Shown piece by piece: positions 22,584 to 60,540 of a stretch of DNA of 64,000 nucleotides (positions are counted from its first letter, which is position 1; each line of letters begins with the position of its first letter). The notes beneath the pieces were generated by a model. That model was not told the origin of the DNA and made no database searches. It saw only the letters and a list, made by a program, of their open reading frames with translations. The stretch comes from Candidatus Latescibacterota bacterium. Lineage in GTDB: Bacteria; Latescibacterota; UBA2968; UBA8231. A program made the position numbers and the translations under genes. The stretch lies in contig OZ241867.1 of assembly GCA_965203175.1 (NCBI GenBank), positions 3,296,001-3,360,000 on the forward strand. Direction: 5' to 3'.

Positions 22584-24578
22584 TCAGTACATCACTGGAA
22601 TTTCATTGCCCACTGTGCCGGTAAACGCGTCAATGACCAGCCACAGACCTCCGGTGGCGAATTGACCGGCGATCAGGCCGAGGAAAAAGGGGCGGATTTT
22701 GTGGTATAGACCAACGCCGCCGTAGCGCAGGATGACGAGTTTGATCAGCCAAGCCAAAAAGACGGAGAACCAGATGTAGCGCATGGTCCACCCGGCGCTG
22801 ACGGCAAAGCCCAGCGGGTGGAAGGGCCACCACATCAGGCGCTGGCGGGCGATCATGAGGAGGGCCATAACTAGGCCGCCGCTCAAGGTCCAGAGCCAGC
22901 CGTCGACGCTGACTCCGGAGGGCTCATTCAATTTGCGCAGGGCGAATTTAGAGGGATAGCCCGGGAAGCTCTGGCCGAAGAACTGGTTGTGGAGATTGAC
23001 CCCGCCATAGTCATAGGCCAGGTGGAGGGTGTAGTAGATGGAGACGGCTAGAGTGATGAACATGGCCCCGGCAATGCCCCACAAGAGCCGGCGCCGGTTG
23101 CCCGTGGTCTCGCTGGTCAGGCGCAGGCTGTTGGACAGGGGCGCCATCATAAAGACCAGCAATTCGCCGACCCAGATGAGGGAGTAGGCCGCGGCCACCA
23201 TGCCCTTGGCCCCCAAGGCCGGGACGCCTACCCCGGAAACCACGAAACCGAGGGGCACCATGGCCGGGCTCAATGTGGGGATGCCGGCCTCGACAATGGC
23301 GCGCGTCAGGCCGATGAAGATGACGAGGGCCGAAAAGACGAACAGCGGCGCGACCCAGGCGGGAATGCCGCTTTGCCACAGCCAGAGGGTCATGCCCGCG
23401 GTGCCGATGAGAAGCCCCAACAGGGCGCTGCGGTAGGACATGATCTCATCGGCATCGTCGCCCGAGGCCTTCTTGGACACGGCTTGGCGCCACACCTCGG
23501 CTAGGTGATGCCGTCCCACCCACAGGCCCGCCCCTACCATTACAATCAGAGCTCCCATCATCTGGTGGCCGGTCACTGGAGTGCTCCAAGGGCCGAGGGT
23601 GGCCTGTAGAGTGTCGATGCCCAACAGGCCGAGGACGTGTTGTTGCAGCGTATAGACCAGAAGGAAGAACCACAGGCTGAGCGAGAGGGTGGAATTGATG
23701 AGGAAGGAGAAGCCCAGCATGAGGAAATTGAGGTTGACCGGCAGATTGGCGCCGAAGAAGGACACGCTGGTCTTCAGACTGATCTGGGCCACGGAGGGGA
23801 AATAGTGGTGCAGGGCATTGAGGCTGCCGACTAGGAAAGGGATGGCAAAGCCGATCCACATGAGCCTGTTTTTAAAAAAGGGCTTGAGCAGGGAGGATCG
23901 GCCCTCGTCCTCGATCATGGCTAGGGCCACCTGGGCCAAGGGATAGGCTAGGCGCTCGTGTTCGACCCACTGGCGGCGCAGGATCACGGCAATGGAGATG
24001 AGGGTGAGGTACAAGGCGGCGTAGAACAGCAGCCAGTAGCCGAGGGGGGGCAACCAGTTGGCCCAGGGGATGGCTGTGGTGCCGATACTGCCTTCGTAGA
24101 AACCGCGCACGGCCTCGGGGTCGCCCATCAGCATCCATTCGGTGAGATGGGGATGGACGACTTCGGCCCATTTGTTCTCGGCCGAGGCATAGTAGTAGGT
24201 CCCGGTAATCATGGGCAGGAGCATGCCGGTTACGCCCCGGGAGGGGATGGCCGCGGCGACCATCATCATAATGGCGATGGTGACCAGTTCGCCCCATTGC
24301 AGACCCCATTGCCGCTTGGGCAGGGCCAGCACCACGTGGACGGTGATCAGAAGAAAAAAAAGCAGACAGTACGCCGCTGGGGTCGACGAGGAAAAGCCCA
24401 TGGGCGTGCCCTTGACCAGCATGGTGGTATGGGGCACGCCGAGGGCAATGGCAACGCACAGCAGGGCACCGAGAAACAGGCCGCGGAAAGTGATGTGGGC
24501 GTTGGGGCGTTCCCGGGCTCGGGGCGCGGCGCGTTCGGCGAGACGGGCCCGCAGACTGGCGGGGATTTTTCTTTTCAA
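22584..24578 (-). CDS. DUF6785/DUF6784-type polytopic membrane protein
   Basis: RRQWVEHERLAYP, WWPFHPLG and PFFLGLIAG motifs; paralog of 14940-16880. Confidence 0.75.
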   Translation of the reverse strand: MKRKIPASLRARLAERAAPRARERPNAHITFRGLFLGALLCVAIALGVPHTTMLVKGTPMGFSSSTPAAYCLLFFLLITVHVVLALPKRQWGLQWGELVTIAIMMMVAAAIPSRGVTGMLLPMITGTYYYASAENKWAEVVHPHLTEWMLMGDPEAVRGFYEGSIGTTAIPWANWLPPLGYWLLFYAALYLTLISIAVILRRQWVEHERLAYPLAQVALAMIEDEGRSSLLKPFFKNRLMWIGFAIPFLVGSLNALHHYFPSVAQISLKTSVSFFGANLPVNLNFLMLGFSFLINSTLSLSLWFFLLVYTLQQHVLGLLGIDTLQATLGPWSTPVTGHQMMGALIVMVGAGLWVGRHHLAEVWRQAVSKKASGDDADEIMSYRSALLGLLIGTAGMTLWLWQSGIPAWVAPLFVFSALVIFIGLTRAIVEAGIPTLSPAMVPLGFVVSGVGVPALGAKGMVAAAYSLIWVGELLVFMMAPLSNSLRLTSETTGNRRRLLWGIAGAMFITLAVSIYYTLHLAYDYGGVNLHNQFFGQSFPGYPSKFALRKLNEPSGVSVDGWLWTLSGGLVMALLMIARQRLMWWPFHPLGFAVSAGWTMRYIWFSVFLAWLIKLVILRYGGVGLYHKIRPFFLGLIAGQFATGGLWLVIDAFTGTVGNEIPVMY

Positions 24579-24733
24579 GCCGGATGCCTAATTGCAGTCG
24601 CTCGATGGGCTGAGTGCGGGGATTTTGTGGAGGCCAAGCCCTGGCCTATCTTTGTCCCAACCTATGTTTTCCAGCCGAAGTTTGTCAATGTCTTGTTGGG
24701 TCCGATGGACCACTTAGAAAAGGGAGGGCGGAA

Positions 24734-25972
24734 GTGAACGGCGTGAGGGAATCTGCAAAAATCCCGAGACAGAAAAAGCCCTTTGATCGCATTCTAGGGC
24801 ACCAGTACACCGTCTTCGACGGGCTAGCTGGGATGCAGGTGGAAGACATCTACCAAGATCAGCGTGGCCTGCTGTGGATCGCCACAGCCGACGGCGGCGT
24901 GAGCCGGTTCGACGGAACGCACTTCGATACCTTTGGCCTGTCGGATGGGCTTCCCAGTCTCACGGTATCGACCATCGCCGAGGACGCAGACGGGCGACTG
25001 CTCTTTGGTACGCTCGGCGGCGGACTGGCGGCCTATGACGAGCGCGGTTTTCAGGTGTACACCACCGAGCACAGGCTACCCTCCAACGACATAGTGAGCC
25101 TGCAACCGCAGGCCGATGGTTCAATACGGGTGCTGACCGATGGAGGGATAGGCTGGTTTGCCGAGGGGCGATGCGTAGAGCGCGTGACAGAAATTGCGGG
25201 TCAGCCGCTAGGGTGGGTGTACGACATGGCCACTGACACAACGGGTACGACGTGGCTGGCGACGCAGCAACGGGGGACCATCAGCCTGGACGGTCGGCGC
25301 ATGAGTGCGGAGAATGGCGCAATGCAGTGGCCGTGGAAGTTTGCCCAAGACGCCTCTGGTCCTCTGTGGATCGCCTTTCGCTACGTTGGCACCAAAGTCG
25401 TTATAGGCCGCTACGATCCAGACAGTCAACGGCTCGACCTGATCGAGGCAGACGCAGCTATCGAAGGGACGGAGGCCGTAAATCACGGTACTCGCCATGT
25501 GCGCTTGGACGATAAAGGCCGGTTGTGGATGGCTCGCCAGGGCGTGCTAGTGTACGACGGGAAGGAATGGCATCCTTTTTCCGCTGGCTTGCCGGATGTT
25601 CACTTTTCGGATGCGCGGCTGACCTATGCGGACCGCGAAGGAAATATCTGGGTGGGATTGTGGGGCGGCGGACTGATTTTTTGTGATCCGGTTAGTGTTC
25701 AGTTATACACCGGAGCGGATGGCCTGCCCGACAGCGGGGTCCACCAGCTCAGCGAAGACCATCAAGGCCGGGTCTGGATCGGCACGATGGGGGGGCTAGC
25801 TTGTCTTGAAGACGGCCGGATTCGCTCAGTGGAGACCGGGCACAAGGTCACGGCGTTGGCGATAGACCGCCAAGGACAGATCTGGCGCGAGAGCCCCGAG
25901 GGGTCTGTCCGTCAATGGCATTCTGGCTCTGACGGCCGACCCTCAACAAGGGTGTCTGTGGATTGGGACTAG
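24734..25972 (+). CDS. N-terminal part of a split sigma-54 activator: two-component-regulator-type beta-propeller
   Basis: GTG 24734 after GGGAGG. Repeated DGLP...I.ED..G.LW.GT.GG blades; similarity is lost after GQIW (about 25886). Confidence 0.7.
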   Translation: MNGVRESAKIPRQKKPFDRILGHQYTVFDGLAGMQVEDIYQDQRGLLWIATADGGVSRFDGTHFDTFGLSDGLPSLTVSTIAEDADGRLLFGTLGGGLAAYDERGFQVYTTEHRLPSNDIVSLQPQADGSIRVLTDGGIGWFAEGRCVERVTEIAGQPLGWVYDMATDTTGTTWLATQQRGTISLDGRRMSAENGAMQWPWKFAQDASGPLWIAFRYVGTKVVIGRYDPDSQRLDLIEADAAIEGTEAVNHGTRHVRLDDKGRLWMARQGVLVYDGKEWHPFSAGLPDVHFSDARLTYADREGNIWVGLWGGGLIFCDPVSVQLYTGADGLPDSGVHQLSEDHQGRVWIGTMGGLACLEDGRIRSVETGHKVTALAIDRQGQIWRESPEGSVRQWHSGSDGRPSTRVSVDWD

Positions 25973-25982
25973 CGGCGGAGGC

Positions 25983-27455
25983 GTGCTGAAGTACGATGGC
26001 CGGGGGTTTCAGAGCATCCGTTTGGGCAAATCCACCTTGGAGAATATCGTCGAGGCCATCCTGCGCGATAGTCGGGGCCGGCTGTGGTTCGGGACGAGGG
26101 CGGGGCTGATTGCGTATCAACCTGGCAATACGCCCCCGGGTATCGTGATTCGCCAAGTTGTGGCGGGGCGTCTGTTGGAGATGCCCCAAGCCGTGTCCTG
26201 TCCAGATAGCACCCCTGAGATTCAGTTCCACTTCCAGGGCCTTAGCTTCCGAAGCGGGGCCGAGCAGATGCGCTACAGCCATCGGCTCGTCAGCCACAGC
26301 CCGGCAGAAGAGTGGAGTGCGTTCACGTCTTCCAACAGAGTGTCGTACAACGGCGTACCGGTCGGCCAGTTCCGCTTTGAGGTACGGGTTTTAGATCGGG
26401 ATGGCCTCATGTCGGAAGTCGCTAGCCTCGATGTACAGGTGTTTGCCGACGAGAAGAGCGTGCGCCTTCAGCGCTTAGAACACATGCTGCGGGATGCGGA
26501 TCAGGACTTTCTCTATCAGAGCCAAGCCATGACCCAGCTCTTAGAGAGGATCGAGCAGATGGCCGATACTGATATGACGATGCTGGTGCTAGGCGAGACC
26601 GGCGTGGGCAAGGGCGTGCTCGCCCAGAGGATCCACAACCTGAGCCGACGCCGAGGGCAGCCCTTTGTCGCGCTCAATTGCGGCTCCCTGCCCGCCGGGC
26701 TGATTGAGAGCGAGTTGTTCGGCCACGAGCGAGGGGCTTTTACTGGTGCCGTGAAGCGGCATATCGGCTGTTTTGAACGGGCTAACTACGGCACCTTGTT
26801 CCTCGATGAAATCGGCGATCTGTCGTTAGAAGTCCAACAGGCACTGCTCCGCATTCTGGAGAATCGCTACCTGACGCGCGTCGGCGGCGAGCAGTCGATC
26901 CCGGTGGATGTGCGGGTGATTGCGGCGACCAACAAGGATCTGAAAGAGGCCATCCGGGCGGGGACGTTCCGGGAAGATCTGTTCTACCGCTTGAGCGCGT
27001 GGCCGGTGAAGCTGCCGCCGCTGCGGGAGCGTCGAGAGGATATCCCGCTCTTGACGGCGCATTTTGCGCGTCGGTATGCCCAAAATTTGCAGCGATCGGT
27101 GCCAGCGTTGGGCGACGGAGTGGTGAAGCATTTGCAGGCGTATGCGTGGCCGGGAAATGTGCGCGAGTTGGAGCATCTGATCTGGCGGGCGGTGGTGCTA
27201 TGCCAAGGGGAGGCCATTCAGATGGAGGATGTGCCGCTGGCTGCTGAAGACGAAGCCACGGAGAAGCCTCTTGAGCCGCCGCCCGCGCCAGTTGAAGCCG
27301 AATTCAAAGACGAGAAACAGCAAATCGCGGAGGCGCTACAAGCGACCAACTGGATGGTTTATGGCGAGCGGGGTGCGGCGCGCTTGTTGGGCATGAACCC
27401 GGAGAAGCTGCGCTACCGCATGCAGAAGTACGGGTTGCGCCGACCGAAGAGGTAG
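25983..27455 (+). CDS. C-terminal part: last propeller blades, Y_Y_Y domain, sigma-54 AAA+ enhancer-binding domain and Fis-type HTH
   Basis: GETGVGK, ESELFGHERGAFTGA, LFLDEIG, WPGNVRELE and GAARLLG motifs. This frame stays open upstream as GLSVNGILALTADPQQGCLWIGTSGGG. Confidence 0.88.
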   Translation: MLKYDGRGFQSIRLGKSTLENIVEAILRDSRGRLWFGTRAGLIAYQPGNTPPGIVIRQVVAGRLLEMPQAVSCPDSTPEIQFHFQGLSFRSGAEQMRYSHRLVSHSPAEEWSAFTSSNRVSYNGVPVGQFRFEVRVLDRDGLMSEVASLDVQVFADEKSVRLQRLEHMLRDADQDFLYQSQAMTQLLERIEQMADTDMTMLVLGETGVGKGVLAQRIHNLSRRRGQPFVALNCGSLPAGLIESELFGHERGAFTGAVKRHIGCFERANYGTLFLDEIGDLSLEVQQALLRILENRYLTRVGGEQSIPVDVRVIAATNKDLKEAIRAGTFREDLFYRLSAWPVKLPPLRERREDIPLLTAHFARRYAQNLQRSVPALGDGVVKHLQAYAWPGNVRELEHLIWRAVVLCQGEAIQMEDVPLAAEDEATEKPLEPPPAPVEAEFKDEKQQIAEALQATNWMVYGERGAARLLGMNPEKLRYRMQKYGLRRPKR

Positions 27456-27491: not shown

Positions 27492-27549
27492 ACACGGAAA
27501 GTCGTGGAGAATCCACGGAAAATCGTGGAAAGCCCACGGAAAATCGTGG
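27492..27549. promoter_or_regulatory. Three palindromes (C/A)CACG-N6-CGTGG at 21-bp period; putative upstream activator sequences
   Basis: Units start at 27492, 27513 and 27534, about 120-180 bp upstream of a -24/-12 promoter. Confidence 0.7.
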
Positions 27550-27670
27550 AAAGTCTTGCACTACGGCTGAGGCCGCGCAGCGCAGAAAAATTCGTCTCAT
27601 ACGTTAAGTGTCATTCCTTCAATTCTTTAGGGTGTTCCTAAAGAATTTTTTTGTGCGGGGTCTCTTGGGG

Positions 27671-27686
27671 TGGCACGAAATATGCT
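27671..27686 (+). promoter_or_regulatory. Sigma-54 (-24/-12) promoter
   Basis: TGGCACGAAATATGCT matches TGGCACG-N4-TTGCW with exact GG-N10-GC spacing and one mismatch; lies downstream of a bEBP gene. Confidence 0.8.
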
Positions 27687-27775: not shown

Positions 27776-29854
27776 ATGCGCTGCATGCTCTTTGCAATTC
27801 TACTGTTGGTCGCTCCGCGCGGCGTAGTTGCCCTAACGTGGGATTTCGACGACGGCATCACTTGGGGCTGGACCGCCCGGGAAGGTTTTCATAGCAATAC
27901 AAGAAGCGGTTTTGAACTACTACAGAGCGAAGTCATCGATGGGGTCTGGCGCATCGCGCCCGTGCCCGGTCGCAGACCCACCGTTCAATTGTGTTCACCG
28001 TTGATCGGGGAGGACTCGGCCCTGTTCGACCGCCTCACCCTACGGCTGCGCCTCATACACCATAGTCCCACCGAAGAACAATTCGCGATGTACTGGTCCA
28101 ATGCTGTGAGCCGCCCTGACTCTGACACAAAAGGAGTATTTGGTACGGGACGGCAGCAATCCTATCCCCTTGAATGGGAAGAAATCACCATAGACCTACG
28201 CGCCTTGGCAGAAGCAGACACAGAATGGGCGATCACCTGGCAGGATACTCTTTTTAATTTTTCTCTAGACATGCTGTTATATCGAGACTCTCAGGATGTG
28301 GACAACCACCCAAAGTTTTTAGAAATAGACTGGATCCAGCTTATAGGAGCCGAAGAGTTGGCGCAGGGAGAATTGTCGCCTCGGGATCTCGGTGTGGAGT
28401 TGGAGCCGCCCGGCACGCTGTTCGCCGACCCCGACTTTTTCCCGCTCGGAGAGGGCATCGGCACCCCAAACTATCGGCGAGCATCGCAAGGTGCGGTGGG
28501 CGACGTAGACGGCGATGGCGATGCGGATCTCGTGGTGGCCTGGAACCGCCTTGTGGACCGCGGCAGAGAACTGGGCTGGACCGTGGCGTCCAACGACGGG
28601 CTAGGCGGCTTTGAACCCACCCAAGAAGTCCCCCTTTTAACCACATTTGACTTTCCATTCATGGATCTCTGGGGAAGCGACTTCGACGACGATGGACTCC
28701 TAGATCTGGTCGTTGCCGAAAGCGGAATCGTCGAACTGTGGTACAACTGGGGCGACGGCTTTGATCTCACCCTGCAACTGTCCGATGTCTGGCCCATTGG
28801 CTTAGCCGATGGCGACGGTGACGGCGATACGGACCTGTTGGTCTGGGAGTACGACGCGTTGTCCCGAAAAGTGATTCTGTGGATTAACGACGGCTACGAG
28901 TTTGTCCGCGGTGAGGAATTTGTCCTCGGCAGCGAAGAGCATCTCCTTGCCTACCTACCCGCCGGGCAACCCTTAGGCGAAGCTGCGAGCCTGTTGTGGC
29001 ACCAGCCGCAGGGGCCTTGGCAACTGACCCGGCCGTGGGCCGCCAGCCAAGAACCACTGCGCTCTTTCGAAGCCGGGGTCAATCCCTATGCCCTGCACTT
29101 ACTGGCAGATCTCGACGGCAATGGGATGGTGGACCTACTCGGCTCCCCTGAGAGCATAGATAGGTTCGGTGAAACCGACTACTACGGCTTGGCTCTGTGG
29201 CGTCTGGACGCTTCCGGCGGGATGGCACGCCATTACTTGCTCGCCTGGAAGGCGTTCATAGCGCACGAAGCCACCGCCAGCGACCTCAACGGCGATGGCG
29301 TGCTGGATTTGGCTATGGTCGCTGGCAACTTGACCATCGGTCGTCCAGCTCTATTGGTGTGGCTCGGCCAGCGCAACGGCGCACCCGTCTTCGAAGGCTA
29401 TTACCCCTTATCCGGCGAGGGCAATCAGGTCCTCGCCAGCGATGTCAACGGCGATGGCGACCTCGATCTGGTCGTGCTGGGAACGAATCCGATAAGTGGT
29501 CTCGGCGGCGTCTTCGTCTTGATCAACCAAGGCAGCTCGGCCACCGCCGTAGCGGCCGAGGTGGCCACGCCAACTACCTTTGCTTTAGGTGCCAACTATC
29601 CCAATCCGTTCAATCCCGCCACAACCATCCCCTTGACCGTGCCCGCTGGAGCCAAAAACGTGGACTTAACTATCTACAATGTCTTGGGGCAGCCGCTGCG
29701 TCGAGTGTGGACGGGTTCTCTGCCTGCCGGCGAGCATCGGCTGACTTGGGATGGCCGGGATGCGCAAGGCCGACCTGTCGCCACTGGGGTCTATGTGTAT
29801 CGGTTGCAGGTGGACGAGCAGACGCGCACCCGCAAAATGGTTAAACTTGAATAG
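27776..29854 (+). CDS. Secreted FG-GAP/VCBS-repeat protein with C-terminal T9SS type A-like/FlgD-Ig domain
   Basis: SD GGAGGT, signal peptide, multiple GDVDGDGDADL repeats, NYPNPFNP...WDGRDAQGRPVATGVYVY. Confidence 0.88.
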   Translation: MRCMLFAILLLVAPRGVVALTWDFDDGITWGWTAREGFHSNTRSGFELLQSEVIDGVWRIAPVPGRRPTVQLCSPLIGEDSALFDRLTLRLRLIHHSPTEEQFAMYWSNAVSRPDSDTKGVFGTGRQQSYPLEWEEITIDLRALAEADTEWAITWQDTLFNFSLDMLLYRDSQDVDNHPKFLEIDWIQLIGAEELAQGELSPRDLGVELEPPGTLFADPDFFPLGEGIGTPNYRRASQGAVGDVDGDGDADLVVAWNRLVDRGRELGWTVASNDGLGGFEPTQEVPLLTTFDFPFMDLWGSDFDDDGLLDLVVAESGIVELWYNWGDGFDLTLQLSDVWPIGLADGDGDGDTDLLVWEYDALSRKVILWINDGYEFVRGEEFVLGSEEHLLAYLPAGQPLGEAASLLWHQPQGPWQLTRPWAASQEPLRSFEAGVNPYALHLLADLDGNGMVDLLGSPESIDRFGETDYYGLALWRLDASGGMARHYLLAWKAFIAHEATASDLNGDGVLDLAMVAGNLTIGRPALLVWLGQRNGAPVFEGYYPLSGEGNQVLASDVNGDGDLDLVVLGTNPISGLGGVFVLINQGSSATAVAAEVATPTTFALGANYPNPFNPATTIPLTVPAGAKNVDLTIYNVLGQPLRRVWTGSLPAGEHRLTWDGRDAQGRPVATGVYVYRLQVDEQTRTRKMVKLE

Positions 29855-29912: not shown

Positions 29913-32048
29913 ATGCGCCGCGTTCTCTTTGCAATGTTGTTGGTGGCTGCTCCACACGGAGTCTCTGATTTAACGTGGGATTTTTCTGCGGGCTGGGCGG
30001 CACAGGAGAGTTCCGCAACGACTGCCATGGTGAGTAGCGAAATCGTGACGTCGAGTGCTCGTCTGGACGCAGACAGTACTCAGAGCCAGCCGTCGGTTGT
30101 GATCATCACCGGCGAAGTCCAGAATCCTCGCTCGCGAAAAATCACATTTAGATACGAATCGCCGTCGGCGCTGGAAAGCTCCGAGCAGCGCGTTGCACTC
30201 GACAGCTTGGATCGCTTCGCCTTCGAACTGCCTGTCGTCCGGGGGACCTTCGTCAGTGGGTATTTCGAAGGCGGGCAGCCAAGATGGGAATGGGTGCAGT
30301 GGTTAGGATCGTTCCTTTTCGAGCGCAGATCCCTGGCTCTTTTCGTCGAACCCGGCGATAGTCTGCACGTGGCCGTGGAGGAGGGCTTTTTCGCTTCTTC
30401 CTATTCGTTCAGCGGCTCCAACGCGGACAACAGCCGCTTCACTTCTGAGTGGATCCCGCAATTCTACTCCTTACGCCTCGACCGCGACGCATACAAGGGT
30501 CTGGGGATCGAGGATTTCAAGGACCTAATGGAACAGTGGCGACGGGATCAGTTCGAGTTCTTGGCCGAGGAGCGCGAGCAATACGCGCTGTCTTCAGGGT
30601 GCGTCGACTATGTGACGAACTACGTCAACTACGAGTGGGCCCTTAGGATGGTTGATTACCCGTCGCGTTACCAGTTTGCCAACGGACGAGAGAACAGAGA
30701 CATCACCCCGGAGTACTACGACTTCCTGCAGGAATTTCCCCTAGTGGACGAAAAGGCCATAGGCATAGGCCATTATCGCTGGTTTCTGGAACGAGCCTTG
30801 GACCGTGACCATGACGATGACCATAGCCCCAAGCTGTCTAAGATGTATGATCTATCGGGTTTGGAGTTGTCGGAGGAGACCCACGCGCAACTCGACTCCC
30901 TGTACGAAAAAGACGGCCGACAGCCCGTGCTATCGAAAATGGTCGATTTGTCGGCGTTTGGTGTTGCGGAAAGCGCTCAATCGCAACTGGACTCCCTGTA
31001 CGAAAAAGAGGGCCGATGGCTCAAGCTTTCCGAGCGGTACGATTTGTCGGCGTTTGGCGTTGCGGAAAGCGCTCAATCGCAACTCGACTCCCTGTACGAA
31101 AAGTCCGATAGGTCCCTCAACTTCTACTGGTTCAGTGAGGAAGAAAAGCCTAAGGCGGATACGACGGGCGGGGAGTTGGTGCTCCACATACCTTCTGGAG
31201 TGCGGTTGGATTCCCTAGCCAAAGAGCCGCCCAAGCTATCGGCGAAGATGGATCTATCGATTTTGAAGCTGTCGGAAGCCGCTCAGGCTCAGCTCGACTC
31301 GATGTACGAACATCGTCAACCGCTCGGGCTGTCGGCGAAGATTGATCTATCGGGATTGGGGCTGTCGGAAGCTGCTCAGGCCCAACTCGACTCGATCTAT
31401 GCCGGAAAAGGACATTGGTTTGGGTCTAGATACAATCTGGCCAAAGAAAAACTCGAAGGGAGAGTGCTCTACTGGTTTTTAGCCGGAGAGTTGATCAATA
31501 CGCTCAAGCGCGGTAGCAGTGAAGCCTTTGCGTGGGCCCAGCACAAGTGGGAAGAGTTCCAAGAGGTCAACCCGTATCCGGAATACAATGAGGCCGTGCT
31601 AGTGGCTCTTGCTGCCGCCCTGAAGCTACAACCCGGAGAACCCGCACCCGACTTCACGCTCGACGACCTCGACGGTCAGCCCGTATCGCTGAGCCAGTTC
31701 AAGGGGAAAGTGGTTCTGCTCGATTTCTGGGCGAGTTGGTGCGGGCCGTGTATCAACGACCTACCCTATCTCCGAGAAGTCAAGAAAAAGACGTCTGACT
31801 GGCCGGTCGTCTTCCTCAACATATCGCTGGACGCGGATGATGCTGCTTGGCGAGAGGCGATTGATGAACACGAGATCAAAGGCGTCCACGTGCGCGCGGA
31901 CGGCTGGGGCGCAGAGGTAGCCAAAACCTACCAAGTGATGGGCATCCCTTCGTATTATTTGGTGGACTCACAAGGGCTGATCGTAGAGAATCATGGCCTA
32001 AGGGGGGATGCAGACACGACGGTAGCGACGATCGAGGAGAGTTTGTGA
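29913..32048 (+). CDS. Exported TlpA/ResA-family thiol-disulfide oxidoreductase with long repeat-containing N-extension
   Basis: APDFTL...VLLDFWASWCGPC and GIPSYYLVD motifs; signal peptide; SD GGAGGT. Confidence 0.88.
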   Translation: MRRVLFAMLLVAAPHGVSDLTWDFSAGWAAQESSATTAMVSSEIVTSSARLDADSTQSQPSVVIITGEVQNPRSRKITFRYESPSALESSEQRVALDSLDRFAFELPVVRGTFVSGYFEGGQPRWEWVQWLGSFLFERRSLALFVEPGDSLHVAVEEGFFASSYSFSGSNADNSRFTSEWIPQFYSLRLDRDAYKGLGIEDFKDLMEQWRRDQFEFLAEEREQYALSSGCVDYVTNYVNYEWALRMVDYPSRYQFANGRENRDITPEYYDFLQEFPLVDEKAIGIGHYRWFLERALDRDHDDDHSPKLSKMYDLSGLELSEETHAQLDSLYEKDGRQPVLSKMVDLSAFGVAESAQSQLDSLYEKEGRWLKLSERYDLSAFGVAESAQSQLDSLYEKSDRSLNFYWFSEEEKPKADTTGGELVLHIPSGVRLDSLAKEPPKLSAKMDLSILKLSEAAQAQLDSMYEHRQPLGLSAKIDLSGLGLSEAAQAQLDSIYAGKGHWFGSRYNLAKEKLEGRVLYWFLAGELINTLKRGSSEAFAWAQHKWEEFQEVNPYPEYNEAVLVALAAALKLQPGEPAPDFTLDDLDGQPVSLSQFKGKVVLLDFWASWCGPCINDLPYLREVKKKTSDWPVVFLNISLDADDAAWREAIDEHEIKGVHVRADGWGAEVAKTYQVMGIPSYYLVDSQGLIVENHGLRGDADTTVATIEESL
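30828..31400 (+). repeat. Five roughly 32-aa (96-bp) coding repeats LSxxxDLSxxxLSExAQAQLDSLYE
   Basis: Units 2 and 3 are nearly identical in DNA (GATTTGTCGGCGTTTGG.GTTGCGGAAAGCGCTCAATCGCAACT). Confidence 0.85.
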
Positions 32049-54958: not shown

Positions 54959-57169
54959 TCAGCGGCTGTTGATCACGGCGAATTTGCCGCGCACCGCGTT
55001 GCCGGTTTCAGCCTGCGCGACAAAGTAGTAAATACCCGACCCTACGAGAAAACCCGCCACACTCTGGCCATTCCAAGTGACTGCGCCTTCGCCCGCCGCG
55101 CCGTCGAGCTGACGGATGAGTTCGCCCGCCGCGGTGAAAATGCGCACGCCAGCGCCCAGCGGCAGGTCGGCAAAGGTCAGGGATGCGCCGCGCACGCCGA
55201 TGTAAAAGGGGTTGGGATACGCGTACGCTTGAGGCCCCGCCGCCGTCCCCGAGGCACCCAATTGCAGACGGCTCATTCCGTCGAGTGTGCCAATCCACAG
55301 CGCGTCGTTTTCACGGTCGAAGTACAGTGAGTTGACGCGGTTGTTGACGAGGCCGTCGCTGGTGTCGAGCGCGAACTCGACCTGGCCCTCGGTGTCGATG
55401 CGGGCCAAGCCGCCTTCGGTGCCGACCCAGATGCGCCCCCAGTCGTCTTCGGCCAGCGACGTGACCGCGGTGTTCGGCAGGCCGTTGTCGGCGTTGTACA
55501 CCTTCCAGCTTTCGACAGCAAAATGCGCGTCAGGGCGCGAATACTCGCCGCGCACTGCATTGAGGCCGTTGTTCGTGGCGACCCACACCCGCCCCGAGCG
55601 ATCGACGTGAATGTCGTTGACGGTATCGCTAGTCAGGCTTGGATATGTGGCCGTGTCGAAGGCGAGGCCGATCTCGTCGCCGGTCTCAAAAGAGGTCCCG
55701 CCATCGTCGAAGAGGAAAAAGCCGTCGAGCGCCGTCCCGACCCACTTCAGGTCGTCGGGACCAATGGCGATTTTGGTCATGTCCCGTCCCGCGGACATGC
55801 CGAAGTCCAACTGACTGTTGAGTGTGGCCCGTTGGGGCGGCCACCCATCCATGACGACTAGCCCATTTTGGACATTGGCAATCCACATCAAGCCGTTGGC
55901 ATCGCGGTCGATGTCGCTGATGGCGGCAAACGTATCGCCTTGGATACCTTCGAGGACCGAGTTCTTGGTGTTGAGGTGCTGCCACCGGCCACTGGCGTCG
56001 CGCACGTCAATGCCCACGCCCCAATTGCCGACCCACAGCAGGCCCTCGGCATCGGTTTCTACGGCCGAGACTTTATTGGACGACAGATTGGCCCTTCTGT
56101 TGTAGGTAGTCCAACCCTCGCCGTCGAACTCGTACAGACCAAAAGCGGGTAGATTGTCCTTGGGCACGGAGGCGACCCACAGATGACCGTTGGGGGTCTG
56201 GGTCATGTCGAAGAAGAAGTTGGCTCTAGGTTCGCGGGGCGGCGTCGGTGAGTCGGTGCCGAGGACGCGGAGGCCGCTCGCGCTGGCCACCCACAGGGGG
56301 CCGTCGGTATCGGACAGGTCGGCGGTACTGCTGATGTCCGACGCACTGAGCGGCTGCCAGCGGTTGCCTTGGCGCTGGGATAAGACGCCGTCAGCTGCCC
56401 CAGCGACGATGCTCCCCTCGAATAGTCCGAGGGCAACACTACTGGTCGTAGAGTAATCGATCTCGGGGTGGTCGAGCGCGGGATGCACTCGCCAGAGGCC
56501 GTCCGAAGCTGCGACGAAGAGCGTGTCTTGATAGACTAGCATGTCGCGCACCTCGCCTCTTATTATTAACTCAGCCTCCCAACTGCTGGGATCTTGGAGA
56601 TTGGGCTGGTCCAAATCTGCCCACACTAGACCGTTGACGGTCCCGGCCCACAGGAGACCGGCAAACACCTCAATGCTGGTCACCTCGGTGTCTTTGGCCA
56701 GACTCCCCAAGCGGCGATAGGTCTCCTTGACCTCCTCTTTGCTGATGATAAACGCACTGACGCCGCGTTCGCTGCCGACGTAGAGGATGTCCCCATGGGG
56801 CTCAAGGGCGTTGATGCGGAGGTTTTGGAAGTCGAGGAAGGGCGGATCGAAGTCATTTTTCTCAGGCCGATAGCGGCTCAAGCCCTGGGAGTGCGTACCA
56901 AACCACAGGTGGCCGTTGGCATCTACAGCTAAGCTCAAGATGAGGTTGCCTGGCAGGCCGTCGCGGCGGGTGAAGCGCGTATAGGTTTGGGTCTGCTGGT
57001 CGTAGCGCAGGACGCCGCCGCTGGTGCCGGCCCAGACTGCGTCTTGGTGGACGAGCACCCGGTTGATTTGGCGCATGCTGGTATAGGCTTCAAATCGGTC
57101 GTCGTCGGATAGCTGGGCACGGACGGGCAGGACCAAAAGCAGCAGTGGAGCAAGACAGAGCAAAAGCAT
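54959..57169 (-). CDS. PorZ-like secreted double beta-propeller protein with T9SS/FlgD-like C-terminal domain
   Basis: Signal VRA|Q, W.GT..G blades, DDLKWVGT, AYPNPF...IFTAAGELIR...SGIYYF...GKFAVI. Confidence 0.72.
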   Translation of the reverse strand: MLLLCLAPLLLLVLPVRAQLSDDDRFEAYTSMRQINRVLVHQDAVWAGTSGGVLRYDQQTQTYTRFTRRDGLPGNLILSLAVDANGHLWFGTHSQGLSRYRPEKNDFDPPFLDFQNLRINALEPHGDILYVGSERGVSAFIISKEEVKETYRRLGSLAKDTEVTSIEVFAGLLWAGTVNGLVWADLDQPNLQDPSSWEAELIIRGEVRDMLVYQDTLFVAASDGLWRVHPALDHPEIDYSTTSSVALGLFEGSIVAGAADGVLSQRQGNRWQPLSASDISSTADLSDTDGPLWVASASGLRVLGTDSPTPPREPRANFFFDMTQTPNGHLWVASVPKDNLPAFGLYEFDGEGWTTYNRRANLSSNKVSAVETDAEGLLWVGNWGVGIDVRDASGRWQHLNTKNSVLEGIQGDTFAAISDIDRDANGLMWIANVQNGLVVMDGWPPQRATLNSQLDFGMSAGRDMTKIAIGPDDLKWVGTALDGFFLFDDGGTSFETGDEIGLAFDTATYPSLTSDTVNDIHVDRSGRVWVATNNGLNAVRGEYSRPDAHFAVESWKVYNADNGLPNTAVTSLAEDDWGRIWVGTEGGLARIDTEGQVEFALDTSDGLVNNRVNSLYFDRENDALWIGTLDGMSRLQLGASGTAAGPQAYAYPNPFYIGVRGASLTFADLPLGAGVRIFTAAGELIRQLDGAAGEGAVTWNGQSVAGFLVGSGIYYFVAQAETGNAVRGKFAVINSR

Positions 57170-57178
57170 GGGGACGGC

Positions 57179-59635
57179 CTACATCATCGTTAAAGGGTCG
57201 ATATTGATGGAAAAGTGGAGGGCGTGATCTTTGGCGGCCTCGCGCATGGCCGGCAGCGCGCTGAAGGCCGTTGCGCGCAAGTGGCGCGCCGAGGGGCCGC
57301 GCAGAAGGGCTTGCCAACGGTAATGACCGCGCAGCCGCGCCAGCGGGGCCGGCGCAGGCCCGAACACGAGTGTATCTGCATCGAGGCCCTGCCGCAGGGC
57401 ATTTACGCCTTGTTGCGCCCCGATTTCAACGGCTTGTTCGCAGGGGCCGCGCCAGCGGAAGACGATTAGGCGGCCAAAAGGGGGGAACCCGGCCTGCCGC
57501 CGCTGGGCCAATTCATTGTGGGCAAAGCCCGCGTAATTTTGGTTTGCGGCCGCGCGCAGGGCTGCGTCGTCGGGCAGAAGCGTCTGGATGACGACTTCGC
57601 CGGCCGTGTGGCCGCGCCCCGAGCGGCCGGCGACTTGGGTCAGGAGCTGGAAGCTCCGCTCGGCCGCGCGGAAGTCGGGCAGGTGCATGCCGGTGTCGGC
57701 GGAAATCACGCCGACTAGCGTGACTTCGGGAAGGTCGAGTCCCTTGGCGATCATTTGGGTACCGAGCAGCACGTCGGCCTCGCCGCTGCGGAAGCGCTCG
57801 ATGAGTGCGTCGTGCGCGCCTTTCCAAGCGGTGGTGTCCACGTCCATGCGTATGACGCGGATGCCGGGAAATTGTTCCAAGAGGGCGCTTTCGACCCGTT
57901 GGGTCCCTACCCCGTCGAAGCGCAGCTCCGAGCTGCCGCAGGACGGGCACACCGGCGGCGGTGGGGCCGCAAAATCGCAGTAATGACAGCGGGTCTCAGA
58001 GGCAGCGGGTCGCCGGTGATAGGTCAGCGAGACTCGGCAACTGGGGCACTGGATCGGCTCACCACAGGCAGTGCAGCTAATGAAGGGCGCAAAGCCACGG
58101 CGATTTTGCAACAGGATGATTTTTTCGCCGCGATCAAGGCGGTCCTGTATCTTGCGCCGCAAGTCGTGCGAGAAGATGGCTCGCTGCTGCCTTTGGAAAG
58201 GCTCCTTCTTCATATCGACGACTGTCACTTGGGGCAAGGGGCGGTCGTCGATGCGGCGGGGCAAGGTGTGGAGGTGGTACTTGCCCGTGACGGCATTCCA
58301 ATGCGACTCTAGGCTGGGAGTGGCCGAGCCGAGGACAACGACGGCGTTGCCGTGCTGTCCGCGGACTAAGGCGAGGTCGCGGGCGTTGTAGGTGAGGGGA
58401 TGGCTGCTGTCTAGGTCCTCTTGCTTGTACGAGGTATCGTGCTCTTCATCCACGACAATCAGTCCCAAATTGTCCACCGGTGCGAGGATGGCCGAGCGAG
58501 CGCCTATGAGCACGCGCTGCTCGCGACGGCGCAAGCGCCGCCAAGTGTCGTAGCGCTCTCCGGTCGAGAGCTGGCTGTGGAGGACGGCGACTGCCTCGCC
58601 AAAGTGCTCCTTGAAGCGCCGCACCATCTGCCAAGCGAGGGCGATTTCTGGAACCAAGATGATTGCACCGCGCCCCGCGGCCAACGCCTGCGCTGCGAGT
58701 CGGACGTACACGAGGGTCTTGCCCGCACCGGTGACGCCTTGCAGTAGGGCTGGATAGAATTTTCGAGTGTCGAGCGCTGCCGACAGGGCGTCGAGTACCT
58801 GTTGTTGGTCGGCCGTAGGGACGAGGTCCGGCGGGGTACTGCTGGCGATGTGGGCGAGGGGATCGCGGACGACTTCCTCGGTAGTCGCCTCAAGCAAGCC
58901 ACGGCCTTCGAGGGCCTTGAGTACGGCCGAGGAAAATCCCGCCGCGCTCAGTTCGCTGCGCACGGCCGTGGGGTGATCGAGCAAGTAGCGCAGACAGGCC
59001 GCTTGGCGCGGCGCGCGTTTTTCGATGTCGGCGATGGCGGTGTGCGCGGCCGCTTCGTCGTTTAGGAGGAAGCGGCGTTGGCTCAGGGCGCGCGGCCGCC
59101 GGTCTTCGAGTACAGGCGCAATTTCAATGTGCCCGTTGCGGCGCAGAGTGCGCATCCCCTTCTCCAAGCCACGGCTGCCGAGTCGGCGCTTGAGGGTGCT
59201 AACCTTGAGAGAGCCGCTGCGATGGAGTTCGCTGAGTATCTGTGCCTCCATGCCCGTGTGGTGGACAGCGGCAGCGGACGCGTCGCGCAATTGTACGAGG
59301 CGGTTGGAACTGAGTTTGACGCCTGGGGGCAAGGCGGCCATCAGCGCACTGCCGAGGGGTGCCATGTAGTAGGAAGCCATCCAGCGGCAGAGCGCAACGA
59401 TCTCGGGGCTGAGGAGCGAGGTGTCGAGGATTTGTTCGATAGGGCGGATCTTACTTGGGGGGAGGTCTCCGAGTGTGGCTGGCCCCAAGACGATGCCGGT
59501 GAGCCGGCGCTGGACCACTGGCACCAACACCAAAGCCCCAGACCGCGCTTCAGCGGCGAGTTCAGCAGGTACGCCATAGGTCAACTCGCGCGCTACAGGT
59601 GGCGGCAGGGCGACCTCTACGTAGCCTTGGATCAT
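57179..59635 (-). CDS. priA: Primosomal protein N' (replication restart helicase)
   Basis: GVTGAGKT, DEEH, four CxxC and GTQMIAKG motifs; start moved to ATG 59635. Confidence 0.96.
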   Translation of the reverse strand: MIQGYVEVALPPPVARELTYGVPAELAAEARSGALVLVPVVQRRLTGIVLGPATLGDLPPSKIRPIEQILDTSLLSPEIVALCRWMASYYMAPLGSALMAALPPGVKLSSNRLVQLRDASAAAVHHTGMEAQILSELHRSGSLKVSTLKRRLGSRGLEKGMRTLRRNGHIEIAPVLEDRRPRALSQRRFLLNDEAAAHTAIADIEKRAPRQAACLRYLLDHPTAVRSELSAAGFSSAVLKALEGRGLLEATTEEVVRDPLAHIASSTPPDLVPTADQQQVLDALSAALDTRKFYPALLQGVTGAGKTLVYVRLAAQALAAGRGAIILVPEIALAWQMVRRFKEHFGEAVAVLHSQLSTGERYDTWRRLRRREQRVLIGARSAILAPVDNLGLIVVDEEHDTSYKQEDLDSSHPLTYNARDLALVRGQHGNAVVVLGSATPSLESHWNAVTGKYHLHTLPRRIDDRPLPQVTVVDMKKEPFQRQQRAIFSHDLRRKIQDRLDRGEKIILLQNRRGFAPFISCTACGEPIQCPSCRVSLTYHRRPAASETRCHYCDFAAPPPPVCPSCGSSELRFDGVGTQRVESALLEQFPGIRVIRMDVDTTAWKGAHDALIERFRSGEADVLLGTQMIAKGLDLPEVTLVGVISADTGMHLPDFRAAERSFQLLTQVAGRSGRGHTAGEVVIQTLLPDDAALRAAANQNYAGFAHNELAQRRQAGFPPFGRLIVFRWRGPCEQAVEIGAQQGVNALRQGLDADTLVFGPAPAPLARLRGHYRWQALLRGPSARHLRATAFSALPAMREAAKDHALHFSINIDPLTMM

Positions 59636-60540
59636 GGTTGGGCGTCGGGAGCCTCTTCTGTGAGGGGCTGTAAATTCGATCCTAGTATTTGTATGCCGTC
59701 GGCTGTGGCGCGGAAGCGCAGCACTTGATTGGGGTTGCCAAGCTGGCCGCCACCGAGTAATTCGCCGTCCAACCAATAGCTTATGCCGTGGGGATTGGTC
59801 GAGAGTACGACGAAGTGATCGCGGGCTTCAAAGCGGCGGCGCTCACCGGGCGCGATTGTACCCTCAAAATTTTCTACTGCCCCATCCCAGCGAATTTGCA
59901 CCCAAGTGGAGTCGCGGGCCTCTAGCTCGAGAACGACAAGGGAGGCGGTTTGCGCAGTAGCCGCGATCGTCGAGGTGTCTGCGGTAGCAGGTGCTTCAGA
60001 AGCCTCCGACTCGGTTGACGACTGGACGAGCAGGGTGTCGCTCAGGGCGACTACCGGCTGGGATTCGGTCGGAGGGGAGATCGTTTGTGCCGGGGTGTCT
60101 ATTTGCGTCGGGGCGGCGGATTGGGCTGGGGCCGTTGACGGTGCGGCTATCTTATCGCCGAAGAAGTAATACGCCACAGCGAGCAGGCAGCAGACGCCTA
60201 CTACCAAGCCGATGACGATCAGCGGCGTCCGCGAGCTACGCTGGGGCTTGGGCTGCTCTAGTAAGACCGTAGAGCGTTGACGAGGTCGGAGGACCTGTCT
60301 TTGCTGTTGGTCGAAGCGGGACAGTAACGGCTCGGGATCGAGGCCGAGGTATTCGGCATACTCTTTCAGGGCTAAACGGGCGAAGACCGGCTCGACCACA
60401 TCGAACTGGTCGGTTTCTAGGCCCTGTAAGACGGACAAACTAATGCCGGTCTGTTCTTGGATTTCTTCGAGATTGAGGCCGCGCGCTTGGCGTGCGGCCG
60501 ACAATTCTTCTGCAATGGTTTGTTGTTTTTCTTCGCTCAT
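59632..60540 (-). CDS. rodZ: RodZ-like protein (HTH, TM, DUF4115)
   Basis: N-terminal HTH (YAEYLGL), single TM, Ala/Thr/Pro linker, C-terminal beta domain. Confidence 0.8.
   Translation of the reverse strand: MSEEKQQTIAEELSAARQARGLNLEEIQEQTGISLSVLQGLETDQFDVVEPVFARLALKEYAEYLGLDPEPLLSRFDQQQRQVLRPRQRSTVLLEQPKPQRSSRTPLIVIGLVVGVCCLLAVAYYFFGDKIAAPSTAPAQSAAPTQIDTPAQTISPPTESQPVVALSDTLLVQSSTESEASEAPATADTSTIAATAQTASLVVLELEARDSTWVQIRWDGAVENFEGTIAPGERRRFEARDHFVVLSTNPHGISYWLDGELLGGGQLGNPNQVLRFRATADGIQILGSNLQPLTEEAPDAQP

Follow-up and report, generated by a model that had tools for sequence, protein, structure and literature searches.

A putative regulatory gene and its downstream control region are described here from a 64-kb window, the whole stretch of 64,000 nucleotides analysed from the genome of a Candidatus Latescibacterota bacterium (contig OZ241867.1, positions 3,296,001 to 3,360,000). 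The source genome is one contig of 6.58 Mb and is 93% complete. The gene, at 24734..27455 on the + strand of the window, is covered by two overlapping + strand open frames, 24614..25972 and 25866..27455. Its GTG start at 24734 is preceded by a GGAGG-type ribosome site and agrees with the start of the syntenic orthologue in the related genome L021. On balance the locus is probably a member, put out of action recently, of a family of soluble one-component sigma-54 activators that has expanded in the lineage; such activators are also called bacterial enhancer-binding proteins (bEBPs).

In the 5' frame, Pfam gives a Reg_prop match of 88.6 bits. The 3' frame contains a further Reg_prop match, a Y_Y_Y domain (28.5 bits; cut-off 26.6), a Sigma54_activat domain (PF00158; 229.7 bits, cut-off 20.2), AAA_lid_14 (90.3 bits) and, as the C-terminal DNA-binding helix-turn-helix (HTH), HTH_8 (25.8 bits; cut-off 22). 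The translation of the 3' frame contains Walker A (GETGVGKG), Walker B (LFLDEIG) and the GAFTGA loop (GHERGAFTGA). No HisKA, HATPase_c, Response_reg or HTH_AraC match was obtained in the gene at E values up to 0.01. The NCBIfam models NifA, NorR, NtrC, AtoC and ZraR match the AAA+/HTH part alone, all below their equivalog cut-offs. A first-pass annotation, made from the sequence of the window, had placed the gene with its propeller, Y_Y_Y and sigma-54 AAA+ domains here, had quoted the linker VQVFADEKSVRLQRLEHMLRD, and had noted that there is neither a kinase nor a receiver domain; all of this agrees with the present analysis, and the linker is found in the translation.

The gene is interrupted. 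A blastn comparison with L021 shows that the window misses exactly L021 5171-5595, which amounts to 425 nt or ~142 codons, with a blunt junction (Table 1). The missing segment runs from the end of blade 9 through blade 12 of 14, and a rejoined product would be short of ~3.3 blades of the second propeller. Up to the junction, the window has 93.4% nucleotide identity to L021. When compared with par1, the closest paralogue, the 5' frame corresponds approximately to residues 1-392 (89% identical) and the 3' frame to residues 535-1047 (90%); residues 393-534 are absent from the window, a net 431 nt at the DNA level (blastn). The syntenic orthologues are intact in two related genomes (1045 aa in L021 and 1051 aa in L024), where the upstream context is as in the window, with an NDH-2-like gene and a DUF6785 membrane-protein gene. 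Of 29 database relatives, 20 match both halves, and in all 20 the two matches are separated by 138-147 residues; for the remaining nine, the match is confined to the 3' half. The ratio of non-synonymous to synonymous substitution rates (dN/dS) against L021 is 0.12 in both halves, so that, measured against the time since the two genomes diverged, the break is recent. The single intact reading frame of a bEBP is present in eight close paralogues, in L021 and in L024, and absent from the window copy. Judged by its sequence, the window copy is a pseudogene, a decayed member of the family, and since the deletion breaks it, it cannot be a working sensor. Separately, the par1 orthologue of another single-contig genome (L019 4001-7143) consists of two overlapping frames, 354 and 786 codons long; this is a second member of the family that is broken, or else an indel introduced by assembly.

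Table 1. Features of the activator locus and its downstream region (window coordinates).
Feature	Position	Strand	Basis and remarks
5' part of gene, blades 1 to ~9	24734..25903	+	Reg_prop; similarity to par1/L021; out of register afterwards, to TAG 25970-25972
Deletion junction	25903..25904	+	blastn against par1, L021 and L024; 425 nt missing, frame shifted
3' part of gene, second frame, ends at stop	25904..27455	+	Pfam, NCBIfam; last two blades, Y_Y_Y, linker, AAA+, lid, HTH_8
Y_Y_Y	~26256-26441	+	Pfam
Linker helix	~26442-26513	+	Between Y_Y_Y and Sigma54_activat
Sigma54_activat	26514-27008	+	Pfam
AAA lid	27024-27266	+	Pfam
HTH_8	27312-27431	+	Pfam
Candidate enhancer (upstream activating sequence), three CCACG-N6-CGTGG palindromes, 21 bp apart	27492..27549	+	Sequence; alignment with eight paralogous intergenic regions
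12-bp hairpin and T-run	27621..27654	+	Terminator scan; 17-18 nt before -24 element
Sigma-54 type -24/-12 promoter, TGGCACGAAATATGC	27671..27685	+	Sole pattern match in the 64-kb window
Presumed target, secreted FG-GAP repeat protein with type IX secretion system (T9SS) type A sorting domain	27776..29854	+	Pfam FG-GAP_3, FlgD_ig; frame intact
Next gene, secreted TlpA/ResA-like redoxin with long repeat-rich N-terminal part	29913..32048	+	Pfam Redoxin/AhpC-TSA; NCBIfam ResA/TlpA below cut-off

The eight close paralogues in the same genome have open frames of 1049-1075 codons, and there are also two distant paralogues. The family makes up 11 of the 26 strong Sigma54_activat matches in the genome, and rpoN is a single locus (Sigma54_DBD, 205.7 bits). 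The GAFTGA and Walker motifs are conserved in nine of the ten paralogues. In the remaining paralogue, far2 (L017:3010-6195; G000 1682809-1685997), the loop is degenerate, with GRENERANTA where GAFTGA would be expected, and far2 may not contact sigma-54.

Membrane segments were sought with a simple hydropathy scan (Kyte-Doolittle, 19-residue windows, threshold 1.6) run with controls. No segment reached the threshold in either half of the window copy or in any of the ten paralogues (12 sequences); the adjoining membrane protein gave 60 such segments, and the secreted target gave seven, at its signal peptide. In par1 nothing of the open frame precedes the start codon, and in par3 and par5-7 only 9-15 codons do, so that there is no room for a hidden signal peptide. 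Because the AAA+/HTH output must act on DNA and nothing spans the membrane, the intact family proteins should be cytoplasmic throughout. The absence of a signal peptide and of a hydrophobic helix, noted in the first-pass annotation, is seen in the ten paralogues as well as in the window copy.

An intact member, par1, was modelled with AlphaFold2 (AF2) from a 54-row alignment, giving a mean predicted local distance difference test (pLDDT) score of 88 and a predicted TM-score (pTM) of 0.69. The model has 14 four-stranded blades to residue 605. A β-sandwich occupies 613-714 and one helix 717-731; the AAA+ domain starts at 741, and a helical HTH lies at the C-terminus. Foldseek matched the sensor to BT4663 (4a2l/4a2m; E 2e-44, target TM-score 0.65-0.68), BT3049 (3v9f; E 1.6e-40, target TM-score 0.70) and BT4673 (3ott), and the AAA+ domain to FlrC, NtrC1, ZraR and FleQ at a target TM-score of ~0.9. 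A PDB sequence search yields the same four sensor entries, with E from 6e-42 (3v9f) to 1e-30. The stretch most variable among the paralogues is par1 391-480, with an identity of 0.50 compared to 0.8-0.9 in blades 1-2, and it falls in the segment that the deletion removes. A complex prediction for two copies of par1 612-990 (Y_Y_Y, linker and AAA+) scored 0.00, which counts neither for nor against dimerisation.

The distribution of the architecture was analysed with a profile of the ten paralogues, run against 1.84 billion representatives of 50%-identity clusters; the best 150 were classed using local hidden Markov models and the hydropathy scan. Propeller, Y_Y_Y and AAA+ without a hydrophobic segment are found in 75 of these 150, with a gap between Y_Y_Y and AAA+ of mostly 22-37 residues and in a few cases up to ~100. 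A membrane helix lies between Y_Y_Y and AAA+ in 20, of which 15 also have an N-terminal hydrophobic segment, and the other 55 are different fusions, for example with histidine kinases. Pfam upheld examples of each of the three classes. The first-pass annotation had proposed the direct fusion of a sensor of the hybrid two-component system (HTCS) type to a sigma-54 AAA+ domain, and had suggested a domain-architecture search as a check. The fusion stands for the family, whose intact relatives have a helix of ~17-27 residues at this point, but not for the broken window locus. It had also held that homologues with a signal peptide or transmembrane segment would speak against the idea: close homologues have none, but the distant group of 20 representatives has the membrane helix.

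In a tree of Y_Y_Y plus AAA+ made by a quick method, the no-helix label needs two changes, and one clade of 53 rows is wholly without the helix. The labels of the 62 best genome loci are mostly Candidatus Latescibacterota/Latescibacteria, with three Gemmatimonadota/Gemmatimonadetes bins and two single outliers. A second clade, around P0130, carries Candidatus Poribacteria labels, and its proteins have automatic names such as 'sigma 54-interacting transcriptional regulator' and 'NtrC family response regulator/ligand-binding sensor domain'. The nearest Atlas cluster has 70 members, all of them Reg_prop plus Sigma54_activat. A set of 168 genomes of the phylum was also searched, with Y_Y_Y, the linker and the start of AAA+ as the query. 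Among the matches listed, full-query matches come from the genus itself, many genomes of its family and four further families, and outside those groups the AAA+ part alone matches. A literature search, with subscription journals outside its scope, gave nothing on the fusion of a Reg_prop/Y_Y_Y sensor to a sigma-54 activator, in keeping with the first-pass remark that the architecture was not known to be characterised; papers mentioning Reg_prop concern other fusions, none with sigma-54 as far as their titles and abstracts go. Since the databases already name these proteins automatically, the family is unstudied rather than unseen.

Some further observations were made on these relatives. The membrane-anchored version (P0182, P0206, P0218 and others) has a signal or membrane helix, propellers, Y_Y_Y, a membrane helix, AAA+ and HTH_8, and would be a one-component transmembrane sigma-54 activator; one such member, P0200, has a PAS domain inserted. 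In the Poribacteria-labelled clade the same sensor also occurs with other outputs, namely a SpoIIE/PP2C phosphatase, HisKA-HATPase-receiver, a NACHT-like ATPase and a cyclase, and these fusions often have CarboxypepD_reg or SdrD_B-like N-terminal domains. As regards habitat, several sequencing runs that contain 0.21-0.28 of the sampled words are labelled sponge metagenome, which is a lead and not a finding.

The region 3' of the stop codon has a common layout in all nine close copies: palindromes, a moderately conserved stretch, an A/T-rich segment, a hairpin and a promoter. There are two to four palindromes, of the form NNACG-N6-CGTNN, successive copies being 21 bp apart. In the window the A/T-rich stretch, which resembles a site for integration host factor (IHF), is immediately upstream of the hairpin. 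The hairpin core CTTTAGG...CCTAAAG, which has a T-run after it, is invariant in the nine paralogous regions, and a TGGCAC-N5-NTGC promoter follows 17-18 nt after the hairpin. A strict promoter pattern, TGGCAY-N5-TTGCW, was dropped because it gave a site beside only one of the 11 copies; the pattern used instead allows any base before TGC. In the window this pattern is expected 0.65 times and found once, so that chance could suffice, and the window promoter is credible because of its position and conservation rather than because of this single match. Genome-wide there are 129 matches on both strands, with ~0.006 expected per 600-nt stretch on one strand, and yet a match follows all nine close copies. 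The combined pattern of hairpin plus promoter occurs ten times in 6.58 Mb, nine times beside the nine family genes and once as an orphan, at G000 2464756-2464815 (-) (to 2464914 with its three CCACG-type palindromes). The orphan has no adjacent family regulator and precedes a paralogue of the window's FG-GAP target gene, which suggests that the regulons are larger than one promoter.

A wider set of 64 modules (nine from this genome and 55 from others) has a promoter 165-411 nt after the stop codon in 52 cases, and 48 of these 52 have the hairpin. The outer pairs of the hairpin change compensatorily (ACCC/GGGT, ATTC/GAAT, ATCT/AGAT, GTCC/GGAC), and we read the hairpin as a putative terminator or insulator. 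The genome contains what a bEBP works with, that is, rpoN and a nearby -24/-12 promoter with upstream sites.

The recognition helix of the HTH domain and the half-site of the palindromes appear to be paired. The helix class LRSR (...LRSRMR...) goes with the half-site ATACG in 20 of 22 modules, LRYRMRKH with GAACG in 13 of 15, and LRYRMQKY with CCACG in 8 of 11; the class LRYRxRKY (13 modules) is mixed. The helix classes do not follow the division of this genome's sensors into two clades, LRSR being found in par1 and par2 on one side and par6 and par8 on the other, and the LRY helices in the window copy and par3 as against par4, par5 and par7. The sensor in L024 is orthologous to that of the window gene, yet it is combined with an LRSR helix and an ATACG enhancer, which implies that the HTH and its enhancer move together. 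Over the 64 modules, two bases of the half-site change in step with two or three positions of the recognition helix, and the paralogues therefore appear to be wired to private enhancers. The window copy has its class (LRYRMQKY, CCACG) in common with par5 and with the orphan cassette. With the same helix class and half-sites, par5 could still drive the window promoter, so that the intact enhancer, promoter and target here could be served by it.

The presumed target has a TIGR04183 score of 38.1 (cut-off 23) and a hydrophobic N-terminus. The N-terminal part of the redoxin that follows has several tandem copies of a ~30-residue motif in its translation, LS..DLS..GLSE.AQ.QLDS.YEK. The N-terminal parts of the targets, including this repeat region, gave nothing usable in Pfam at E up to 1, and a model of the target protein from a 4-row alignment had a pLDDT of 50. 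Same-strand genes downstream of the family copies encode T9SS-sorted FG-GAP proteins, TlpA/ResA-like redoxins, PD40/TolB-like propellers and WD40 repeats, and for one distant paralogue a leucine-rich repeat (LRR) protein. When L021 7894-8043 is compared with window 28215-29575, ~1.36 kb of the FG-GAP target is missing from L021, where the regulator is intact; the window has the reverse, and regulator and target have therefore decayed in different lineages. The divergent gene upstream in the window (22584..24578, -) encodes a DUF6785/DUF6784 membrane protein (400.8 bits), and its position is kept in both syntenic orthologues. Elsewhere in the window, at 54959..57169 (-) and adjoining priA (57179..59776), there is a 736-aa protein with Reg_prop repeats and a weak match to the PorZ N-terminal propeller. 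It is a different propeller protein, outside the activator family.

By sequence and model, an intact member consists, in order, of two seven-bladed propellers and a Y_Y_Y sandwich, one short helix, an AAA+ domain with GAFTGA and a Fis-type HTH, and each lies directly upstream of its own cassette, whose promoter would drive genes for secreted or surface proteins. We propose the following mechanism. The propeller dimer would bind a cytoplasmic signal and thereby shift the two Y_Y_Y ends with respect to each other, in line with the scissor model of sensor signalling reported for BT4663 in a review (PMC8534201). The linker helix would relay this change, freeing the AAA+ domains to form the ring that remodels the sigma-54 holoenzyme. 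Until the signal arrives, the linker helix would keep the AAA+ domains off, as it does in NtrC1 and DctD. Transcription running on out of the regulator gene would be stopped by the hairpin, leaving the target dependent on sigma-54 alone. In the window, the blunt deletion has taken blades 9-12 and broken the reading frame, leaving enhancer, promoter and target still intact.

We hypothesise more tentatively that the intact members form natural sigma-54 circuits, each self-contained and all mutually orthogonal. In this proposal, which we would put at well below an even chance, two or three helix residues (S/Y; Q/R; Y/H) would set which of at least three half-site classes (ATACG, CCACG and GAACG) is used, the cue would be cytoplasmic and perhaps an imported glycan fragment, and the modules, each with regulator, enhancer, insulating hairpin, promoter and secreted cargo, would duplicate, swap their HTH-enhancer ends and decay, re-programming the cell surface by lineage.

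Several points weigh against the overall account. The absence of membrane segments comes from a hydropathy scan and not from SignalP or DeepTMHMM. In 12 of the 64 modules there is no promoter match within 600 nt, and the hairpin could be a protein-binding palindrome instead of a terminator. The LRYRxRKY class has CC in only 3 of its 13 modules and no dominant half-site in 6, and the modules are related by descent, so that the tabulated pairs of HTH and enhancer overstate their independence. Because this relatedness inflates the module counts, the case for the palindromes as the cognate sites of the regulators is good but not conclusive. The targets are not glycan-utilisation genes, which weakens the analogy with the ligands of HTCS sensors. 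The support for the deletion junction from the sequencing runs X1 and X2 is not independent, as both come from one study and maybe from the source sample, and in a run from another study, X3, loose ends at 25902-25904 lead on into sequence without the deletion. This sequence could be either an intact allele or the par1 paralogue.

The nature of the signal is the least firm part of the proposal. Analogy with HTCS sensors suggests a sugar fragment as the ligand, though the target genes do not point that way, and the intracellular ligand sensor of the first-pass annotation stands as an inference. The propellers of the family might instead dock a protein partner, for example an anti-activator or a reporter of secretion or envelope stress, rather than a small ligand; this is a possibility that we take seriously without favouring it. 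There is a precedent in the control of PspF by PspA, and β-propellers are common platforms for protein interaction. The targets are secreted proteins and not catabolic genes, and variability among the paralogues peaks in one patch, par1 391-480. However, the closest solved relatives are ligand-binding glycan sensors, and no conserved partner gene was seen beside the nine copies, although neither point is decisive.

With regard to the window copy itself, the 3' frame could be expressed alone by re-initiation at GTG 25983, 11 nt after the TAG of the 5' frame, to give a 490-aa sensor-less activator acting constitutively on the neighbouring promoter. Sensor-deleted activators of the NtrC1, DctD and XylR types do switch on their promoters constitutively. 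Over its 529 open codons the 3' frame retains both Walker motifs (A and B), GAFTGA, lid and HTH, and GTG 25983 has a GGAGG just before it; the intact enhancer, promoter and target and the low dN/dS fit as well. However, the spacing is poor, with only 2 nt from the end of the GGAGG to the GTG, the two orphan blades before Y_Y_Y may misfold, and the low dN/dS mostly reflects the time before the deletion. We therefore regard this as rather improbable compared with simple inactivation.

It is less probable still, and would surprise us, that the organism holds an intact gene of ~1045 aa here, the deletion being an artefact of assembly or confined to a minority allele. Blade repeats and nine paralogues at 60-90% identity do invite mis-joins, the loose ends of X3 fit this explanation, and the frame-broken par1 orthologue in the other single-contig assembly could indicate assembly error. 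However, the junction is spanned by unitig-type contigs of X1 and X2 (depth 10.6-23) in which 175-190 nt align with 0 mismatches, and it has neither a repeat nor microhomology that would cause a collapse. Furthermore, it is the syntenic orthologue, not a paralogue, to which the flanks are 93% identical. The reading implied by the first-pass annotation, one intact protein rejoined from two frames after a simple frameshift (an error or programmed slippage), has next to nothing in its favour beyond the 107-nt overlap of the frames and the CCCC and GGGG runs near the junction: there is no one-base slip, the 425 nt are present in both syntenic orthologues and in all 20 spanning database relatives, and with coding sequence absent rather than shifted no slip, programmed or otherwise, can restore the gene.

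If the family works as proposed here, it adds a sensor class to the bEBPs. As the whole protein would be soluble, it would serve as a full-length, membrane-free model for propeller/Y_Y_Y signalling, and the family would also provide naturally diversified pairs of activator and enhancer with a specificity readable from sequence. Given that it accounts for 11 of the 26 strong sigma-54 activator genes and that its members precede genes for secreted and surface proteins, it is probably one of the main layers at which these uncultivated bacteria control their cell exterior. The window locus itself is a decayed copy and shows that these modules turn over.

It is worth comparing the family with known systems. 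The Bacteroides HTCS sensors BT4663 (4a2l/4a2m), BT3049 (3v9f) and BT4673 (3ott/3va6) likewise have two seven-bladed Reg_prop propellers and then a Y_Y_Y sandwich, with the output directly after Y_Y_Y. The folds match over ~780 columns at a target TM-score of 0.65-0.70 (4a2l/4a2m, 3v9f), with an identity of only ~20%. The HTCS proteins are periplasmic glycan sensors that continue with a membrane helix, histidine kinase, receiver and AraC domains, whereas the family has no signal peptide, membrane helix, kinase or receiver, and uses a sigma-54 AAA+ domain and a Fis-type HTH as output. A sensor otherwise known from the Bacteroides periplasm would thus sit in the cytoplasm here, joined to the AAA+ motor by a single helix. 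The window gene thus has the Reg_prop plus Y_Y_Y sensor of an HTCS, itself without blades 9-12, but neither the periplasmic features nor the kinase, receiver and AraC domains.

The membrane-anchored proteins P0182, P0206 and P0218 have the same three modules in the same order, as well as HTH_8, and their group is next to a minor no-helix clade in the quick tree. They differ in having an N-terminal hydrophobic segment, a membrane helix after Y_Y_Y and 66-106 or more residues before AAA+, and their sensor is presumably outside the cytoplasm.

The output half is that of a bEBP. NtrC1 (1ny5/1ny6), ZraR (1ojl), FlrC, FleQ and DmpR (6iy8) share with the family the AAA+ domain with GAFTGA, the lid and the C-terminal HTH_8, at a target TM-score of 0.9 or more, and both use an upstream enhancer and a -24/-12 promoter. 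The regulatory domain is connected to AAA+ by a short helix in the family, and likewise in NtrC1 in its inactive, dimeric state. The N-terminal receiver with a phospho-acceptor Asp that marks the response regulators of the NtrC family is absent here (no Response_reg match). Control of the known sigma-54 activators lies with small domains such as receiver, GAF, PAS and V4R, and the propeller/Y_Y_Y module was not found among bEBP sensor types in the literature searched. In place of a receiver, GAF, PAS, V4R or ACT domain, the family has a double propeller and Y_Y_Y of ~715 residues.

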